A stretch of DNA of 64,000 bases from Candidatus Heimdallarchaeota archaeon (lineage in GTDB: Archaea > Asgardarchaeota > Heimdallarchaeia > Heimdallarchaeales > Heimdallarchaeaceae): positions 22,313 through 86,312 of the forward strand of contig DXJF01000097.1 of the NCBI GenBank assembly GCA_019057375.1. The letters run 5' to 3'. Position numbers and translations under genes: made by a program. A model generated the notes under the pieces. The model had not been told where the DNA came from and did no database searches. It worked only from the letters and a program-made list of their open reading frames with translations. Of this stretch, positions 3,355-37,455 are shown one piece after another (within the stretch, counting starts at the first letter, position 1; each line of letters starts with the position of its first letter).

Positions 3355-3492
3355 TAGTCATCTATTAGTGTGTTGGAATAAATCTTTTTCGTCATATCGT
3401 CATATTATTTAAGATATCAAGGTGCAACAGAATCTTTTAAAAGAGTAATTTATGGTATTCATTTAACTGGACAATTTATCGTGGTAGGTACA

Positions 3493-3801
3493 ATGAGCGT
3501 TGAATTTCTAAAAAAAATAAGAAAAACAGAAAGAGATTGTGAAGGAAAAATCAAACAAACTGAAGCATCCAAACAAAATGCTATTTTAGAAGCAGAGAAA
3601 ACTTCTGTATTAAAGGTTCGAGATGCGGAAATTCAAGCTAAAGAAGAAGCTGAAAAAATTCTTTCTGGTGCTGAAGATAGAGTTGAAAAAGAATTTGCCT
3701 CAATGAATAAAAAATTTGAAGAAAATCAAAACAAATTCAATGAAAAGGCAAAACAAGTCGAGAAAAAAGCCATTGATGTAGTTCTCTCTGAAGTTTTATA
3801 A
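3493..3801 (+). CDS. atpH: A/V-type ATP synthase peripheral stalk subunit H (G-like)
   Basis: ~100 aa charged coiled coil (A/E/K-rich) directly upstream of subunit F; ATG at 3493 preferred. Confidence 0.65.
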   Translation: MSVEFLKKIRKTERDCEGKIKQTEASKQNAILEAEKTSVLKVRDAEIQAKEEAEKILSGAEDRVEKEFASMNKKFEENQNKFNEKAKQVEKKAIDVVLSEVL

Positions 3802-25259: not shown

Positions 25260-26159
25260 CTAAAATTTTAATTCTTCAGGTTTGATTCGGATTGGTTCTC
25301 CAGTTAATTTTACTCTGCGTTTAACTTTGAGAGAATTAACGAAGTAAACTTTTCCGCCAACTTCTGAACGACGACCAATAAAGACATCGTGTCCTTTTAC
25401 GTCACCAGTAACTGATGTGGCTCTAATATCGACGTTATTTTTTGCAAATAAGTTGCCACCAACTTTGTATGGATGTTTGACAATGCTACCGATTCTTAGA
25501 CTTAGCCATCTTTTCCATCCTTTCAAACCTAGAGTTACATTTTCTCCTACTAAGTTTCCTTTAACATTAGCTGCTCCCTCTACTGTAACATCTTTTTGTG
25601 ATAGGAGATTTCCACCTACTCCTATGGTTCCTGAAGATTTTACACCATTGTTTGTTTGTAGATTTCCACCTACTTTGAAAGAACCAGAGGATTTTGTGAA
25701 ACCTTGTACAGTAGTTTCTCCTTCAATCTTTGCTGATCCAGCAAATTTGGCATCACCACTACCAATCAAATCTCCACCAACCCTGAAAGATCCAGAAGAT
25801 TTGATGGGACCTAAAATATTAGCATCTTGACCAATTTTTGCAGAGCCACTAAACCTAGCAGAAGATTCGCTCACAAGTCCACCAGATATACCAAAGGATC
25901 CAGAACTTCTAACTGTACCCAAAGAAGTTAAGTTTCCTTCACCTTTTAATGATCCTGAGGTTTTTATTCCAGCACATTTAAAATCTCCAGCAAGTCTTCC
26001 TGAACCTGAAATTTTGACAAATTTAGGAATAACTCCACCGGATATATTTGATGATCCAGAGATTTTAACTAAATCTTCTGATTCCTTTAAACTTCCAGCA
26101 GAGCTGATTGTAGCTCTCTGTTCAACATTTTCGTTTGTTTCTTTAATTGTTTTTTCCAT
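25260..26159 (-). CDS. Bactofilin-like (polymer-forming cytoskeletal) beta-helix protein
   Basis: Repeated SGS/xGx-hydrophobic beta-solenoid units; C-terminal G.V.G..V.IG...V.G.V. Confidence 0.7.
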   Translation of the reverse strand: MEKTIKETNENVEQRATISSAGSLKESEDLVKISGSSNISGGVIPKFVKISGSGRLAGDFKCAGIKTSGSLKGEGNLTSLGTVRSSGSFGISGGLVSESSARFSGSAKIGQDANILGPIKSSGSFRVGGDLIGSGDAKFAGSAKIEGETTVQGFTKSSGSFKVGGNLQTNNGVKSSGTIGVGGNLLSQKDVTVEGAANVKGNLVGENVTLGLKGWKRWLSLRIGSIVKHPYKVGGNLFAKNNVDIRATSVTGDVKGHDVFIGRRSEVGGKVYFVNSLKVKRRVKLTGEPIRIKPEELKF

Positions 26160-26189
26160 TTATTTCACCTTTCTGTTTCATTATCTTAA

Positions 26190-27095
26190 TTACAATCTTA
26201 GTTTTTCATGGCTTATTTTTACTGGCTCATTAGCTAAATCTGCTCTCTTGTTAACATCTATGTAATCAACATAAAAAACAGTACCTTCTACATTGGTAAA
26301 TGGTCCAATCTCGACTTTGAGACCTTTAACATCGCCGTCTACATTGGTATTAGCCAAATAAACTTCCCCAGTACCTAAAACATGCCCTTCAATTATTGAT
26401 TTCTTAAGAGATCGAAATCTTAGACCAAGGAAATCCTTTCCTTTATTGATAAGAATATCATCGCCTACTAAATCACCTTCGACCATAATTCGTCCAGCCG
26501 CTTCAACAATTCCTTGAGATAATAGGTTACCTTCAATTCTAGCAGAACCTGAAAATTTTGCTCCGCTTTCAGCTTGTAAAAGTCCTCCAGTAGTAAAACT
26601 ACCAGCTGCTACAATTCTGCCTTTGAGAATAGTTTCTAAGCCTACTTTTGTAGAACCTGCGAATTTTGCATCTTGATCTCCATGTAAGAAACCAGCGCAC
26701 TTAAAAGATCCAGCAGTATTGATGTCTCCATGGGCAGTAATGCTACCATTACTCTTTAGGGAACCAGCAGATTTCAAGTTGTTACATTCAACATCATTTT
26801 CAATTTTTCCAGAACCTGCGATGCGAATATCCTTTCCAACATACCCTCCTGAGATTTTAGTTGATCCAGCAACTGATAGAGATTTATCAGTTGATACCTT
26901 AACTCCTGAAGTATAAATCTGAGAAGCTTCTTTGTGTTGTTCAAAATTTTCTTTAGCATCATCAAGCTTTTGGAGATAACGTTCTTTTAATTCAACATAG
27001 TTTTGTTTATCGATTTCTCCTTTGTCAAACCTCTTTTCCAAGAGTTCTAATAATTCTTCATACATTTTGACTTCGTTTTTAGACAATTGTATCAC
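26190..27095 (-). CDS. Bactofilin-like beta-helix protein with N-terminal SHOCT-like domain
   Basis: LELLEKRFDKGEIDKQNYVELKERY then AGS-repeat solenoid; paralogue of 25260-26159. Confidence 0.7.
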   Translation of the reverse strand: MIQLSKNEVKMYEELLELLEKRFDKGEIDKQNYVELKERYLQKLDDAKENFEQHKEASQIYTSGVKVSTDKSLSVAGSTKISGGYVGKDIRIAGSGKIENDVECNNLKSAGSLKSNGSITAHGDINTAGSFKCAGFLHGDQDAKFAGSTKVGLETILKGRIVAAGSFTTGGLLQAESGAKFSGSARIEGNLLSQGIVEAAGRIMVEGDLVGDDILINKGKDFLGLRFRSLKKSIIEGHVLGTGEVYLANTNVDGDVKGLKVEIGPFTNVEGTVFYVDYIDVNKRADLANEPVKISHEKLRL

Positions 27096-27253
27096 TATGA
27101 TACCAATAACATCGCTTTATTTAATCATTTTTTTAATTGGTTAGAACAAGTGCTTAATCGCCAGGTTAAACGTTTTTAATATCAAGGTAAAGAGGATAAA
27201 CCATATAGCTTAAGGTTAAACCAACCAGTGAAAAAATCCACAAAAGGTAAGAA

Positions 27254-27295
27254 TGGTGCGGGGAGGGAGATTCGAACTCCCGAACCACTAAGGAA
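27254..27295 (-). pseudogene. tRNA-Leu 3' fragment, copy 1 (part left of the inserted element)
   Basis: Plus strand TGGTGCGGGGAGGGAGATTCGAACTCCCGAACCACTAAGGAA is nearly identical to 31861-31902. Confidence 0.92.
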
Positions 27296-27343
27296 AGGTG
27301 TTTTTTTATCGTGTTTAAATATCAAATTACAGATATAAAAGTG

Positions 27344-29269
27344 ATGAATTCTGTGCTTGTAAAAGATCTCGAAGAAGAAAAGGAAGTTCAAAAAACCTAT
27401 TCCTTAGTTCTTAGATTTCAAAATCTAGCACAAAGAAAAGAAGCTAACCATCGAGTCAGCGATTTAGAAGATAAACAATCACTATTACTATATGATACTT
27501 CTACTCAAAAAATTGCAAGAGATTTAGCTCGCGAAAATCCAAATGTTTCATTTCCTATTTCTAAAATCCAAAAATCTTCGAGGAGCAGTTCAAATATCTC
27601 TTTCAGTGCTTATAATTGGTTGTTTGCAGCATCAAAAGTGTCTGTTGATAAGGAAAAGAAAGTAGCTGATTTATTCCAGTTTCTGTTACAAAATCCACAG
27701 CAAGCAATTGAATGGGTGATTCTTGGACGTTCTCCCTATACTGAAATTTCTCTTTCGAAGAAATGGAGAGTAGATTATGTATATGTTATAAATCTCTTGA
27801 CAAGTACTAGACGAAAAACTAACACTTATTGGAAAAAGAATTTTACTATGAGCTTTAAAGAAAAGCAACTAGAGTTCAATTCAAAGCTTCCAAAGACAAC
27901 ACAATTTGAAGTTGAACAAGCAATACAAGACTGCTATGAAGTAAAGGTAGAAGAGTATGCAAAATTGAAGAAAACTACTGAAAAACAATATACTTTTCTT
28001 GATAAATTAGCTTTGGTAGTGAAACATAAGTATGTTATAGCTCCATATGTAACTTCTTGGATTAATCTTTCTCAAAAAGCTCGGTGGAAAAGCTTAAAGC
28101 AACTGAGTAAACAACTTGCTGAAACGATTGGTCAAATCAATGAAAAACTCCATTCTACAATAAGATTGATAGTAGTTTTTGCACTCTTCTCAAAACTGTG
28201 GGGGACTGTATCTAAATTAATTGATTCAACTAATCCAGAAGAAGTTGTAAGTTCTCCGTTTGAAAGAAAAAAAGCGAATTTACCAATTAAAATGTTAATG
28301 AAACATGAATATGACATAATTCGACCTGGTAACTCTCAAAAGATGACACAACTTGCTAAAGAACAAGGATGCTTTGAACTTGGATTTCCATGTAAAGGAA
28401 AAAAAAGAATAACAGGTAATCTTCTGTTTACAGAAAAAATTATCGAATATCTGAAAAATGGTGCTAGTGTAAGAATCTTACAAATTAAAAGTGGAAAAGC
28501 TCCTAACTACAAACCCAAGATTTCAGTTGTTCTTCATGGTACTCCTAGCATGTTTGTGAGCACCAAACTAGCACAAAAATATGCTAACAGTATGAATCTC
28601 ACTGCTGCTAATATCTTAGGGCTAGATGTCAATAGAGTAGGAAAACACATGTTGTCGTTCTCTAATGAAGTTCCATTGGATTCTAGATTGAGATCTTTAT
28701 CAAACCATTACCTCTCCTTAACAAGAAAAGAAATTCCAAGATTGAGTAACTCACTAAAAACTAAAGGTAAGCAAAAAGATAGTTATGGTTATATTAAAAC
28801 AAAGGGTGAGCTAAATAGGATATATAACAAAAGAACTAATATAATTAAGGAAATTAAGAGAATAATACCACATTACATTGCGGGAGTTATTATCAAGAGT
28901 AAGTGTAAATTTTTTTGTATAGAAGAGTTTCGTAAGAATCCAAGAGGGAAAAGAGGTGCATTAGCAAAAGCAATATACAACATGCCTTACGAAGACAATA
29001 TTTTTGAAAAAGCAGTCCAGATTGCGACTCACATTCTTAGTTATAAAGTGAAACTTGTATATGTAAGTGCTCGTAACACAAGTAAATATCATTATAGTTG
29101 TAGAGGTGTGATTCAAAGAGATCTTAAAAATTATGATTATGCTCTCTGTAAAAAATGTGGTGAACGAGTAAATACACATATTAATGCTGCTAAAAACATT
29201 GCGAAGAAAGGAGAAACAATAATAAAGCAAATCAAGCTTCCCCTAGACGCCGCTAAGGGGACGGGGTAA
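27344..29269 (+). CDS. tnpB: Large TnpB/Cas12-like RuvC + Zn-ribbon protein (~641 aa from ATG 27344; track start 27311)
   Basis: RuvC-I ILGLDVN, RuvC-II FCIEE, SARNTSK, HxxC...CxxC ribbon, NTHINAAKNI terminal motif. Confidence 0.85.
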   Translation: MNSVLVKDLEEEKEVQKTYSLVLRFQNLAQRKEANHRVSDLEDKQSLLLYDTSTQKIARDLARENPNVSFPISKIQKSSRSSSNISFSAYNWLFAASKVSVDKEKKVADLFQFLLQNPQQAIEWVILGRSPYTEISLSKKWRVDYVYVINLLTSTRRKTNTYWKKNFTMSFKEKQLEFNSKLPKTTQFEVEQAIQDCYEVKVEEYAKLKKTTEKQYTFLDKLALVVKHKYVIAPYVTSWINLSQKARWKSLKQLSKQLAETIGQINEKLHSTIRLIVVFALFSKLWGTVSKLIDSTNPEEVVSSPFERKKANLPIKMLMKHEYDIIRPGNSQKMTQLAKEQGCFELGFPCKGKKRITGNLLFTEKIIEYLKNGASVRILQIKSGKAPNYKPKISVVLHGTPSMFVSTKLAQKYANSMNLTAANILGLDVNRVGKHMLSFSNEVPLDSRLRSLSNHYLSLTRKEIPRLSNSLKTKGKQKDSYGYIKTKGELNRIYNKRTNIIKEIKRIIPHYIAGVIIKSKCKFFCIEEFRKNPRGKRGALAKAIYNMPYEDNIFEKAVQIATHILSYKVKLVYVSARNTSKYHYSCRGVIQRDLKNYDYALCKKCGERVNTHINAAKNIAKKGETIIKQIKLPLDAAKGTG

Positions 29270-29334
29270 ATAAACCCCTCAAGTAAACCTAAAGTTTCTA
29301 CGAGAACCTAGTAAACTTCATTACGTGCGTGGAA
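29232..29334 (+). ncRNA. Putative omega-RNA scaffold / right end of the element
   Basis: Hairpins CCCCT(29240-44)/AGGGG(29256-60), GGGGT(29263-67)/ACCCC(29274-78) and GTTTCT/AGAAC, overlapping the tnpB 3' end; 5' boundary approximate. Confidence 0.55.
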
Positions 29335-29347
29335 CGGATGACTTATT
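29335..29347 (-). pseudogene. Remainder of tRNA-Leu fragment copy 1 (anticodon 3' strand + intron 3' end)
   Basis: CGGATGACTTATT vs CGGATGGCTCATC in the intact gene (10/13). Confidence 0.65.
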
Positions 29348-29398
29348 ATTTTAATAAATAATAGTTAGCTTAGATAAGAAAAATAGATTTGAAAAAAT

Positions 29399-29502
29399 TG
29401 GTGCGGAGAGGGAGATTCGAACTCCCGAACTACAAAGGAACGGATTTCTTATCTATTCTCTAACCCTTATCTTAGGTTTAAAACTAAGATCTTAAGTCCA
29501 CC
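29399..29502 (-). pseudogene. tRNA-Leu(TAA) partial copy 2 (anticodon arm + full intron + 3' exon + CCA; lacks 5' acceptor strand and D-arm); att-like repeat
   Basis: Collinear with 31861-31963 including TCTTAAGTCC; homology stops at about tRNA position 27. Confidence 0.92.
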
Positions 29503-29548
29503 TTGAAACATAAAAGTATTAAAGGTTTAAAAGACAAAATAGGATTAA

Positions 29549-30427
29549 ATGTCTAGTAAAAATTGGGACACTGTAATAGAGTTACTAGAAACAATCACGC
29601 CCTCATATTACTTAGAAAAGGAGCTTAAAGCTACATTCAAATCTAATCTCCAATATAGAATAGGAAAATACTCTGAGAATTGTCGATATTTCTTTCAGGA
29701 AGGTTTCGAAAAAAAATATTCAAATATTATTCCATCAGCAATAATTGTACCAAGGAAGTCAGGAACTAATATAAGCAAAATCGCAAATGAAGCTGTTATA
29801 TATTTTAAACAAAGCTTGGAATTGTTTAAAACATTGGATAACGTTGAAGAAAATGTGAGTCCATTATTGGAATATTATGGATTATTACAATGTGTTAAGG
29901 GAGTAGTAATTTTAGAATTAGATGTGAAAAGTGACAAGATATTTAGTAAGCATGGTTTAACTCAAGAAACAAGATTTCATTCAAAAATAGATGAACCAAA
30001 ATCAACAAAAAAATATAAACTAAAAATGATTAAGAGAATTAAGCCATCAAAATATATCAACGCTAAAATTATGCCTTATGGTGTTTTAACATCTTTAATC
30101 ATTCGTTTCACAGATCATTATGATGAACTTTATTCTGACAGAGACATATACAAAATAAGTAAGCATTCTATGGATAAATACGTAACAGGATACTATAGAC
30201 CTTCATTAGAAGAAATAACAACCAATCATCATGTAGATCCAATAATTGCTTTCATAGGTTCTTGGATGTTATCAACATTGGTAAGATATAAAGCAAAAAT
30301 GTGGCAAGAAATATGTTTGGGAGAAAAAGATGACATAATAAATAATATTAGAAAATTTAGGAGGGAAAAAATACCTAAAGCAGTAGAAACTATGCTAATG
30401 GATTATGTAAGAAAGAGCTCTTGGTAA
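29549..30427 (+). CDS. YaaC-like family protein
   Basis: YFKQS.E.F...PLLEYYG.L...HGL and MLSTLVRY....W.....GE motifs resemble YaaC. Confidence 0.6.
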   Translation: MSSKNWDTVIELLETITPSYYLEKELKATFKSNLQYRIGKYSENCRYFFQEGFEKKYSNIIPSAIIVPRKSGTNISKIANEAVIYFKQSLELFKTLDNVEENVSPLLEYYGLLQCVKGVVILELDVKSDKIFSKHGLTQETRFHSKIDEPKSTKKYKLKMIKRIKPSKYINAKIMPYGVLTSLIIRFTDHYDELYSDRDIYKISKHSMDKYVTGYYRPSLEEITTNHHVDPIIAFIGSWMLSTLVRYKAKMWQEICLGEKDDIINNIRKFRREKIPKAVETMLMDYVRKSSW

Positions 30428-30509
30428 CAGCTTAAAGAGTATTCATAAGTACTACAAAAGCTTAAAAAATAATGAATGAAAAAGGAAGGAGAGAAAGGAG
30501 GGGAGACAA

Positions 30510-31853
30510 GTGCAAGAGGATAATAGCGAAAATTTAGCTGAGCCAATAGGAATTAAAGAATTAGGAAAGAGAATAATTCTTCTCCCTTATCACATTATAA
30601 GGCTCATAGTAAATAATGTTTTACTATTTATTTTAGGAAGTATAGAAAATGGAGTAATAATTGTAAGAGCAAAAAAAAGTATCAAGATTGAAGAAGGAAT
30701 AAAAAAACTCATACAGGAAAACGAATGTATTCTAAGAAAAAGTATCTACTTAAAGAAAAACGATAGTATAGACGAGATTAAACCAGAAGAGGAAGAAGAG
30801 CAAGAAGTAAAACGAATAAATGTTTTGAATAGAATAATGGCTATAGTAGTAATTTCAATAGTTTGGTCGTTTCAAATTGTGTTGAGAGTCATAGTTTGGA
30901 TATTTATCTTGATTAATTGTTTAACCATTAGAAAGAAAGTAGGTTTAAAGGAGTGGGAAGAGAATAATTTGGGATATTACAGAGAAACCATAAAATATCT
31001 TACAGGTATTAGTGAAGAAATACCTTTTTGGAAAGAATTAGGTGGTTGGGGCGAAGGTTTATTATTTATATTAGTATTTGATTTGGTTGTTATTAGGAAT
31101 GGATTCTTAAGATTGTGTAGGATAATTCTTGGAGATACTTACAGTTATTATTTGATTATTTCGTTAGTATATATCATAATTTTCGTAATTCTTATACCAA
31201 AATATCTGAAGTTTCCAAGTAAAAGTGGGGAAAGGAAAACTAAGCAAATAGTAAGAAGAATAGGAGTAAAAAAACCAAAAAGTATAGCAAGGACTCTCTT
31301 AATTGTGATTCTACTATTAGCAATTAAATTAGGAATTATTTATGGAATATCCTTGCTAATAGATTATAATGTAGAAAATTTTATTTTCCCAGTAAATACA
31401 GGTTATATAATTGCAGTAAGTATGAGTGCAGGTATTGCTGAAGAAATAATATACAGGGGATATGTAATAGAAGTAACAAAAAGAAAATATGGAACTTTAG
31501 TAACTATGATAATTTCAGGGTGTCTTTTTGGACTTGCACATTTTGCGCTTAATCCATCCATTTATAGTTTTGTTCAGATGTTGTTCGTAACCTTTATAGG
31601 AATAACATATGCGTATTTCAGAATTCTATCAGATTCATTGATAGGACCAATAGTCATGCACACAATATATGACATAATTGTACTATCAGTAGTATATACA
31701 ACAGAAAAAATACCTGATTATGTCGTGTATTTGATAGCAATTACATTGAGTATTATAATAACAATAATTTCAATTAATTTGCTGAAACTAATATACAAAG
31801 ACAAAGAACTATTGATATTTAAGAAAAGAGGGAAAGAACAGAAGGAAGGATAA
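30510..31853 (+). CDS. CPBP (Abi/CAAX-type) intramembrane glutamic endopeptidase with long N-terminal extension
   Basis: EEIIYRG, FGLAH and H-x-x-x-D (MHTIYD) motifs; multiple TM helices. Confidence 0.9.
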   Translation: MQEDNSENLAEPIGIKELGKRIILLPYHIIRLIVNNVLLFILGSIENGVIIVRAKKSIKIEEGIKKLIQENECILRKSIYLKKNDSIDEIKPEEEEEQEVKRINVLNRIMAIVVISIVWSFQIVLRVIVWIFILINCLTIRKKVGLKEWEENNLGYYRETIKYLTGISEEIPFWKELGGWGEGLLFILVFDLVVIRNGFLRLCRIILGDTYSYYLIISLVYIIIFVILIPKYLKFPSKSGERKTKQIVRRIGVKKPKSIARTLLIVILLLAIKLGIIYGISLLIDYNVENFIFPVNTGYIIAVSMSAGIAEEIIYRGYVIEVTKRKYGTLVTMIISGCLFGLAHFALNPSIYSFVQMLFVTFIGITYAYFRILSDSLIGPIVMHTIYDIIVLSVVYTTEKIPDYVVYLIAITLSIIITIISINLLKLIYKDKELLIFKKRGKEQKEG

Positions 31854-31860
31854 AGGAAAA

Positions 31861-31989
31861 TGGTGCGGGGAGGGAGATTCGAACTCCCGAACTACTAAAG
31901 AACGGATGGCTCATCTGACTTCTAACCCTTATCTTAGGCATAAACCAAGATCTTAAGTCCGCCGCCGTTGGCCACTTGGCTATCCCCGC
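31861..31989 (-). tRNA. tRNA-Leu(TAA) with 44-nt intron at 37/38 (31908-31951), CCA encoded
   Basis: GCGGGGA/TCCCCGC acceptor, GCGGA-CTTAAG[intron]A-TCCGT, GTTCGAAT T-loop; BHB central helix CTTA/TGAG. Confidence 0.96.
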
Positions 31990-37345: not shown

Positions 37346-37455
37346 TGGTGGGGCATAGCAGATTTGAACTGCCGACCCCCCGGTTTTTGAGTTAAATGCT
37401 TAACAAACAAATAACATATCAGCCGAGTGCTCTAACCAAGCTGAGCTAATGCCCC
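37346..37455 (-). tRNA. tRNA-Ile(GAT) with 32-nt intron at 37/38 (37385-37416), CCA encoded
   Basis: GGGGCAT/ATGCCCC acceptor, CTCGG-CTGATA[intron]A-CCGGG, GTTCAAAT. Confidence 0.95.

Follow-up and report, generated by a model that had tools for sequence, protein, structure and literature searches.

A tRNA-Leu-linked TnpB-family protein of an Asgard archaeon with histidine at the third RuvC position and a putative tRNA-derived guide

The window analysed here is a stretch of 64,000 nucleotides (nt) of contig DXJF01000097.1 (assembly GCA_019057375.1, positions 22,313 to 86,312, forward strand) of Candidatus Heimdallarchaeota archaeon, and our subject is a gene within it that encodes a 641-amino-acid (aa) protein of the TnpB/Cas12 superfamily. 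We found that the third acidic residue of the RuvC site is replaced by histidine in this protein and across its family, that the 3' end of the gene appears to encode its cognate guide-RNA scaffold, and that this scaffold is followed by a short conserved segment derived from the tRNA-Leu(UAA) gene beside which the gene is fixed. The reading that we favour, with a probability of roughly 0.55, is that the protein is an active IS607-like TnpB with a D-E-H site normal for its kind, which has been stranded without its recombinase at tRNA-Leu(UAA) and may act in a homing-like manner at variants of that tRNA gene. What the analysis shows directly is the predicted fold, the conserved motifs, covariation within the scaffold, synteny, purifying selection, where the guide-like segment comes from and the link of relatives to a transposase; RNA binding, catalysis at the histidine site, DNA as the target and the homing role are what we infer from sequence and a structural model.

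Results

A histidine at the RuvC-III position is conserved across the family

The open reading frame has 641 codons without an internal stop, and translation placed the GLDVNR, CIEEF, NTHINAAKNI and zinc ribbon motifs where the initial annotation had put them, as follows.

27344..29269 (+): TnpB-family gene, 641 aa (profile searches, AlphaFold2 model, structure matches, dN/dS)
28625..28627 (+): RuvC-I Asp, D428, in GLDVNR (invariant in alignments A1 and A2)
28922..28924 (+): RuvC-II Glu, E527, in CIEEF (invariant in A2)
29090..29158 (+): TNB zinc ribbon with ligands H583, C586, C602 and C605 (all four invariant in A2; Pfam PF07282)
29177..29179 (+): H612 (CAT) in NTHINAAKNI, at the RuvC-III Asp position (aligned to the Asp of 8hr5 and 9nzq; family-wide)

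A GTG at 27311 could serve as an alternative start and lengthen the protein by 11 residues, but two homologues, P0003 and P0004, begin at most one residue from the ATG. The RuvC-I Asp is preceded by 427 residues, the TNB zinc-ribbon insertion lies between RuvC-II and RuvC-III (PF07282), and nothing is truncated at the C-terminus. In sequence terms this is a distant TnpB, because its only Pfam match, to TNB (PF07282), was just above the cut-off (27.6 bits against 26.3), and the NCBIfam model guided_TnpB scored 29 bits, far below its cut-off of 100.

Two members of the canonical D-E-D triad, D428 and E527, are present, and the third position is His in both the window protein and its family. Profile alignment placed H612 in the column of the catalytic Asp, which stands in N-A-D-Y-N-A-A in CnCas12f1 (8hr5) and in N-A-D-F-N-A-S in a Cas12f (9nzq). 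The genome from which the window comes contains 10 full-length paralogues, 43-46% identical to the window copy, and N/P-T-H-x-N-A was read in all eight that were aligned. Close database homologues that reach the motif (n = 14) had His in 13 cases and Gln in one, and a HMMER search of 1.84 billion representatives returned 145 relatives, of which those reaching the motif almost all read N-T-H-x-N-A-A, down to 20-25% identity. In alignment A2 (34 sequences, with identity down to 20%), D428, N430, E527, the four zinc ligands and D598 were invariant, and N610 and H612 nearly so (at least 90% for H612).

The histidine is therefore clade-wide, and the idea in the initial annotation that it might be a private inactivating mutation was rejected, since all of the aligned paralogues and over 100 diverged representatives have kept the His. 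A catalytically dead site would be expected to drift, and the D-E-H motifs are conserved instead. We also considered D598 as a relocated, compensating acid, and rejected this because the same Asp precedes the second CxxC in canonical Cas12f and TnpB chains of the Protein Data Bank and is thus not specific to the family.

Several relatives (P0055, P0058, P0059, P0065, P0081, P0089 and P0101) are 1200-1800 aa long and carry the D-E-H TnpB module at their C-terminal end; these may be fusions or read-through gene calls. P0081 and P0101 have, in addition, weak matches to MazE antitoxin in mid-protein.

The predicted fold contains a TnpB core and an enlarged REC lobe

An AlphaFold2 model of the window protein, built from 34 homologues, had a mean predicted local distance difference test score of 90.3 and a predicted template modelling score of 0.81. 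It comprised WED strands at residues ~5-24 and 315-399, an all-helical REC lobe at ~28-295, and RuvC with TNB at ~420-630, and searches with it by Foldseek and VIA-align matched exclusively TnpB, Cas12 and Fanzor structures. The top VIA-align scores, effectively tied, included ISFba1 TnpB (8iaz; Z 13.2, 338 of 384 residues aligned), ISDra2 TnpB (8h1j; Z 12.8, root-mean-square deviation 4.3), AsCas12f and Fanzor2, and Foldseek matched the model to CnCas12f1 (8hr5) with an E value of 4.7e-9. Cas12g, which cuts RNA, was also among the structural matches.

The model thus points to the TnpB/Cas12 superfamily fold, a split RuvC-like RNase H fold with WED and REC lobes. As the alignments to the minimal TnpBs 8iaz and 8h1j cover 327-338 residues, the protein would contain a complete minimal TnpB core. 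Relative to these chains of 384 and ~408 aa it has ~230-260 extra residues, and the surplus sits in the REC lobe (~270 residues). The view that this is a superfamily member with an enlarged REC lobe, as initially annotated, is therefore supported by both the predicted fold and the structure matches.

Relatives are linked to an IS607-type recombinase that the window copy lacks

The D-E-H enzyme appears to be the TnpB of a still-mobile family, because the genes of relatives are found immediately after that of an IS607-type serine recombinase. Among distant members, P0026 (31% identity) and P0053 (25% identity) directly follow a gene with MerR helix-turn-helix (HTH) and Resolvase domains. Within the genus, the family was present in all 18 genomes searched, with 1-15 matches each, and 13 copies had a ~200-aa serine recombinase (N-terminus MLVRIG...RRWEKE) immediately upstream. 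The TnpA-linked copies have a common left end, ACCGTnnnCAACTG...CAATCTTGCC, which is retained by a solo copy (cp6) in the window's genome. A FastTree phylogeny of 55 copies, rooted at the midpoint and with supports not inspected, consisted of two clades: a short-branched clade that holds all TnpA-linked copies and a deep-branched clade without TnpA that holds the window copy. As D-E-H is the normal site of a family with transposase-linked members, this argues that the site works.

The left-end consensus was absent upstream of the window gene. No tnpA lay beside any copy in the window's own genome, whose four resolvase genes are all on other contigs, and neither a Y1 transposase (in an assembly that is 89% complete) nor, by family profile, any further TnpB relative was found there. 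The initial observation that cas genes, arrays and transposases are missing from the vicinity was borne out: the flanking genes (bactofilin-like genes, SRP54, YaaC-like and CAAX protease) contained no cas or transposase domain, no CRISPR array occurred at 15-42 kb of the window, and the sole Cas1 of the genome was on another contig.

A promoter, an omegaRNA-like scaffold and a tRNA-like segment flank the gene

Conservation at the two ends of the gene delimited the following elements.

27315..27322 (+): archaeal TATA-like box TTTAAATA, 22 nt before the ATG, within the conserved block TTTATCGnGTTTAAATA (paralogues and orthologues)
29236..29329 (+): 3' part of an omegaRNA-like scaffold (conservation among 30 copies in alignment A3; pseudoknot covariation)
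29330..29349 (+): guide-like segment TGGAACGGATGACTTATTAT, antisense to the exon-2/intron junction of tRNA-Leu(UAA) (conservation in five orthologues; tRNA-Leu matches)

The TTTATCGnGTTTAAATA block was the only conserved upstream block among the aligned paralogous copies, and it also occurred in the orthologous loci L009 and L010. The scaffold begins within the last codons of the gene and ends sharply at TTCATAACGTGCG, as it does in all copies. Its first hairpin (CCCCT/AGGGG) spans the stop codon and is invariant, and the second varies in sequence but, judged by eye, keeps its pairing: GGGG/CCCC in the window, GGGTTC/GAACCC in L009, ACGAG/CTCGT in the paralogous copy cp4 and ATGGG/CCCAT in L029. 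A pseudoknot is formed between the hairpin 1 loop (CGCACGT) and the final 7 nt of the scaffold (ACGTGCG). When this pseudoknot was tested on 30 sequences with a structure that we specified, rather than de novo, 93.8% of cells paired (slid controls, 27-69%), changes on both sides occurred in five of seven pairs, and none of 500 shuffles reached the covariation score. RNAalifold recovered only the invariant hairpin 1 from the mixed scaffold alignment, because hairpin 2 is misaligned between subfamilies. As a pseudoknot adjoining the guide is a known feature of omegaRNAs (PMC12558985), and the arrangement found here agrees with it, we consider that the window gene probably encodes its cognate scaffold at its 3' end.

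The sequences that follow the scaffold in the five syntenic orthologues were TGGAACGGATGACTTAT (window), CAGAACGGATGGCTTCT, CGGAACGGATATCTTAT, CAGAACGGATGACTTTC and CAGAACGGATTTCTTCT. Within them GAACGGAT-NN-CTT was invariant (~17 nt), and the next 25-60 nt up to the tRNA gene were unalignable. The guide-like segment corresponds, in antisense, to the end of the tRNA-Leu(UAA) intron and the 9-10 nt with which exon 2 begins, and so has its origin in the tRNA-Leu gene. Each guide matched the tRNA-Leu of its own genome at 13-15 of 20 positions, with mismatches always at guide positions 11-12, and matches across genomes reached 18 of 20, a contrast with the own tRNA-Leu that was not statistically significant. 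The proposal that guides fit foreign tRNA alleles better was accordingly not retained: matches to the own tRNA (10-15 of 20) were never the best, but with five and seven genomes this was not significant. When targets of the post-scaffold flanks were sought elsewhere in the genome, no second match beyond chance was found except tRNA-related ones.

The window copy is fixed at the tRNA-Leu(UAA) locus and under purifying selection

In the closest homologues (59-64% identity) the gene order is two bactofilin-like genes, TnpB, tRNA-Leu(UAA) and a class II aminoacyl-tRNA synthetase, and a DNA search of the genus added two further orthologues, for a total of five genomes with synteny. The ratio of nonsynonymous to synonymous substitution rates (dN/dS) was 0.14-0.19 in all pairs of syntenic orthologues, including an unsaturated pair (L061-L010, dS 0.50), and the frame was intact in all five genomes at dS of 1.7-2.0 between them. 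The base composition of the window gene is like that of the surrounding genome. These data suggest that the copy became fixed beside tRNA-Leu(UAA) before the species of this Asgard (Thorarchaeota-labelled) genus diverged. Three tRNA-Leu sequences lie around it.

27253..27297 (-): copy of the tRNA-Leu 3' exon (T arm, acceptor, CCA), 42/45 identical to the functional tRNA-Leu (sequence; repeat family D1)
29395..29502 (-): truncated second tRNA-Leu copy with exon 2, intron and part of the anticodon stem (repeat families D1 and D15)
31864..31989 (-): functional tRNA-Leu(UAA) with a 44-nt intron (Rfam, 44.2 bits; ARAGORN with intron search)

The exon-2 copy at 27253-27297, which neither ARAGORN nor Rfam called as a tRNA, abuts the left edge of the TnpB unit, and the 7 nt GGAA(A/C)GG occur on both sides, an arrangement that resembles insertion of the unit into a second copy of tRNA-Leu. 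In L009 the left remnant has decayed.

Several other features of the locus were observed. A 2.35-kb insertion (29503-31856) separates 105-nt direct repeats of tRNA-Leu (29395-29502, and the intact gene at 31864-31989); it carries a YaaC-like gene (29549-30427, PF14175) and a gene for a CAAX/Rce1-like protease with DUF4389 (30510-31853), has no integrase and is missing from the orthologous loci L010, L061 and L067. Upstream, at 25260-27095 (-), are two adjacent ~300-aa genes with weak Bactofilin matches (PF04519) and internal 54-nt repeats (D2, D5, D10-D13), a pair that is conserved upstream of the TnpB gene in L009. A second intron-containing tRNA of 107 nt (37349-37455, -; Rfam, 52 bits) was missed by ARAGORN without intron search. 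Even with that option ARAGORN called no more than 20 tRNAs in the assembly (3.47 Mb), which means that many tRNAs probably contain introns or were not assembled.

Sister lineages have flanks derived from other tRNA genes

Post-scaffold flanks derived from tRNAs were also found in sister lineages, where they correspond to tRNA-Cys, Pro, Asn, Ser and Val. Fragments were scored by local alignment against shuffled flanks, as a permissive Rfam search finds full tRNAs only; seven flanks scored 13-23.5, all to tRNAs, and the maximum of the shuffle null was 12.5. As tRNA genes make up ~0.1% of the genome, this enrichment is not attributable to chance. Most copies of the mobile clade had unrelated, diverse flanks, as expected for guides derived from insertion sites.

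In seven of the eight genomes of the tRNA-Cys(GCA) lineage, an oppositely oriented tRNA lies 65-102 nt past the scaffold end or stop codon (no tRNA-Cys occurred in the stretch examined of the eighth, L057), and the flank is the antisense of a tRNA-Cys D arm. The tRNA-Pro(UGG) lineage has its tRNA 53 nt downstream and a flank that runs from about tRNA position 38 into the 5' exon. The three genomes of the tRNA-Asn lineage have the tRNA immediately upstream in the same orientation, and the flank duplicates, as a direct repeat, the final ~28 nt of this tRNA together with its trailer. Another sister lineage has a flank derived from tRNA-Ser(GCT). The flank of copy cp2 is 42 nt of the antisense of a tRNA-Val 5' half, and that of copy cp3 is an intron-less segment of tRNA-Val(GAC) with its upstream region; an intact tRNA-Val(GAC) lies ~290 nt upstream of the cp3 element, and its intron interrupts the guide match after 13 nt.

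Some side observations concern these loci. The D arm and D loop of tRNA-Cys(GCA), compared at L028, L029, L055, L058, L059, L077 and L080, differ markedly within one genus (e.g., GCATAACGGCTTTGC, GCATGGCCAGGTTTTGC and GCATATCTTCTTTGC), and this variable part is the segment copied in the adjacent TnpB guide. At cp3 (G000:C65; L003 ~1125-1230, -, and 3444-3500, +) there is a ~145-nt flanking duplication of tRNA-Val(GAC) positions 1-48 and their upstream region, in which the copy joined to the T arm has the intron and the copy beside the scaffold is without it. Past the tRNA-Val fragment of cp2, at L002 1029-1315 (+), is a match to the H/ACA-type HgcG RNA (42 bits against a gathering threshold of 77; E 2.9e-8).

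Discussion

A proposed order of events

Under the reading given at the outset, transcription would be driven by the TATA box of the gene itself, and the RNA would fold at its 3' end into an omegaRNA scaffold that consists of a hairpin across the stop codon and a pseudoknot. Next to the scaffold would come a guide of ~17-20 nt, a copy of the tRNA-Leu exon-2/intron junction. The protein would bind this RNA through WED and the enlarged REC lobe, the guide would pair with DNA, and cutting would be carried out by RuvC residues D428, E527 and H612. The probable target would be a tRNA-Leu allele without the element, giving retention or spread at the tRNA locus in the manner of a homing endonuclease, and the resident tRNA-Leu would be spared through its mismatches.

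Several points weigh against this scheme. The exchange of Asp for His could abolish two-metal catalysis, and no biochemical test of any TnpB with a RuvC-III His was found in the literature that we searched. With neither a transposase nor a recognisable left end at the window copy, classical excision-coupled homing cannot operate. Between the window guide and the resident tRNA-Leu no more than 14 of 20 positions agree, and the genome holds no perfect target. Instead of selection on targeting, gene conversion involving the neighbouring tRNA gene, or a T-rich terminator, could account for the conservation of the guide. Finally, the 5' flanks of 14 left ends gave only a weak A/T preference, with a loose pattern that produced mostly false matches, and no target-adjacent motif (TAM) was derived from them.

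Alternative explanations

The best-surviving alternative, which we consider unlikely but deserving of serious attention, is that the protein is a domesticated, nuclease-dead or cleavage-poor RNA-guided binder that sits on the tRNA-Leu gene and modulates its transcription or protects the locus, like TldR, Cas12k or Cas12m. The replaced catalytic Asp fits this proposal, as do an immobilised, syntenic copy with a fixed guide resembling the adjacent gene, the long-term purifying selection on a protein that has no transposase, and the fact that the deep, tRNA-linked lineages without transposase form a clade of their own. However, the same D-E-H residues occur in the short-branched, transposase-linked mobile copies, and no role is known for a dead nuclease there. 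Moreover, D428 and E527 show no variation, the guide carries mismatches against the resident gene, and a C-terminal truncation such as is described for inactivated TnpBs (PMC10691335) is missing. The nuclease-dead option of the initial annotation, which had envisaged a TldR- or Cas12k-like role, has consequently become less likely, because D-E-H is shared with presumably mobile copies. Its interpretation as a whole was upheld in part, and the omegaRNA-like scaffold and the tRNA-derived guide had not figured in it.

It is improbable, in our view, that the system is instead an RNA-targeting effector, in which the guide would pair with the 3' splice junction of pre-tRNA-Leu (or, in the sister lineages, with mature tRNAs) and the D-E-H site would cut or mask RNA. 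Every above-null flank of the Leu, Cys, Pro, Ser and two Val lineages is antisense to the tRNA transcript, no TAM is evident, and altered RuvC sites may change substrate preference (PMC10691335), with Cas12g among the structural matches. Set against these points, the flank of the tRNA-Asn lineage is a sense copy of the tRNA 3' end, the insertion into DNA that is part of TnpB biology fully accounts for flank-derived guides, and an insertion bias can produce a common antisense orientation.

That the gene is a decaying, functionless relic of a stranded transposon, and its tRNA-like flank merely the scar of an old insertion, would agree with the missing transposase, left end and 5' exon of the disrupted tRNA copy, the decayed left tRNA remnant in L009 and the stop codons in two of the 10 paralogues of the same genome, but is very improbable given frames intact in five orthologues despite dS of 1.7-2.0, dN/dS of ~0.15, the conserved promoter, scaffold and pseudoknot, and a 17-nt flank kept while the adjoining spacer was randomised.

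Implications

A broader extension of the active-nuclease reading, which we offer tentatively and regard as doubtful, is that the transposase-less D-E-H clade of Asgard archaea has turned into a set of RNA-guided enzymes, every one of them confined to a single locus and directed at a tRNA gene (Leu, Cys, Pro, Asn, Ser or Val), with guides copied from segments of tRNA genes. Resident tRNA genes would then escape through mismatches, through variation of the D loop, or through an intron that interrupts the protospacer, as in the cp3 example. It is an old idea that archaeal tRNA introns and variation among tRNA genes protect against mobile elements that target tRNA genes. If the clade were aimed at tRNAs, it would provide direct evidence for this protective role, and it would represent a homing or gene-drive function of an RNA-guided nuclease without a transposase. 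The tRNA-derived guides of the fixed lineages also bring OMEGA systems together with tRNA genes as landing sites of mobile elements and with the protective part that tRNA introns may play in archaea.

It is directly testable, for an entire described clade of TnpBs, whether a RuvC site that has His for the third acid still cuts, and what it cuts. The family offers both mobile and immobilised members, a well-defined scaffold and a structural model of high confidence for this purpose, and the conserved, tRNA-derived putative guides of the fixed lineages would provide natural candidates for the target. If active, the protein would add for study a ~640-aa RNA-guided nuclease with a non-canonical catalytic site, from AT-rich genomes.

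Comparison with known systems

A TnpB clade in which the RuvC-III Asp is replaced clade-wide by His, RIIIr-4, has been described as lacking a C4 zinc finger (Altae-Tran et al., PNAS 2023, PMC10691335). Its authors inferred from conservation that the rearranged enzymes retain activity, suggested that altered RuvC sites may shift substrate preference, placed a MazE/RHH-TnpB group within RIIIr-4, and reported archaea-specific rearranged branches (Ser-6, MazE and RIIIr-6) (PMC10691335). The window family shares with RIIIr-4 the His in place of the RuvC-III Asp, and its N-T-H-x-N is the counterpart of N-A-D-x-N in 'derived' TnpBs. In place of the canonical C4 zinc ribbon the window family has H-C-C-C (first Cys to His); RIIIr-4 is described as being without C4. 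The weak MazE matches in two of the large relatives are consistent with the MazE/RHH-TnpB group in RIIIr-4. Archaeal members occur in both the window family and the published archaeal branches, a likeness by description and motif, not by tree placement.

The initial suggestion of a distinct Asgard clade thus stands as regards the clade-wide His, and is weakened as regards its undescribed status, since RIIIr-4 has been published and relatives are ordinary IS607-type tnpA-tnpB elements. A length of ~640 aa with a REC lobe of ~270 residues, locus-fixed tRNA-linked lineages and tRNA-derived guides are all absent from the main text of that paper (PMC10691335), in which 'tRNA' occurs 0 times. A locus-fixed, tRNA-linked TnpB clade with conserved tRNA-derived guides was not found in the papers that we searched.

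The IS607 OMEGA ribonucleoproteins (8iaz and 8h1j) resemble the window system in their core fold and in a 3'-overlapping scaffold that ends in a pseudoknot before a flank-derived guide, and relatives, unlike the window copy itself, have a MerR-HTH and serine recombinase gene directly upstream. The window copy differs in having neither tnpA nor a left end, in its D-E-H site, in being ~230-260 residues longer, and in having been inherited vertically at one locus.

TldRs are reportedly domesticated and immobilised relatives of TnpB whose conserved guide targets a host gene nearby, and are said to have lost RuvC residues and part of the C-terminus. The window copy is likewise immobilised and has a putative guide that resembles a neighbouring gene, but these hallmark losses were not seen in it: neither D428 nor E527 varies, the C-terminus is complete, and only the third RuvC residue differs, as it does in mobile relatives too.

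In the type V-K CRISPR-associated transposon (V-K CAST), Cas12k uses a fixed short homing guide that matches an adjacent tRNA gene (bioRxiv 10.1101/2021.02.06.429022). Cas12k has lost its nuclease function and works with the Tn7-like proteins TnsB, TnsC and TniQ, whereas the window copy is accompanied by neither partner genes nor a CRISPR repeat and conserves the D and E of its RuvC site. Alike in the two are a TnpB-derived effector and a fixed short guide, putative in our case, that matches a tRNA gene beside the element.

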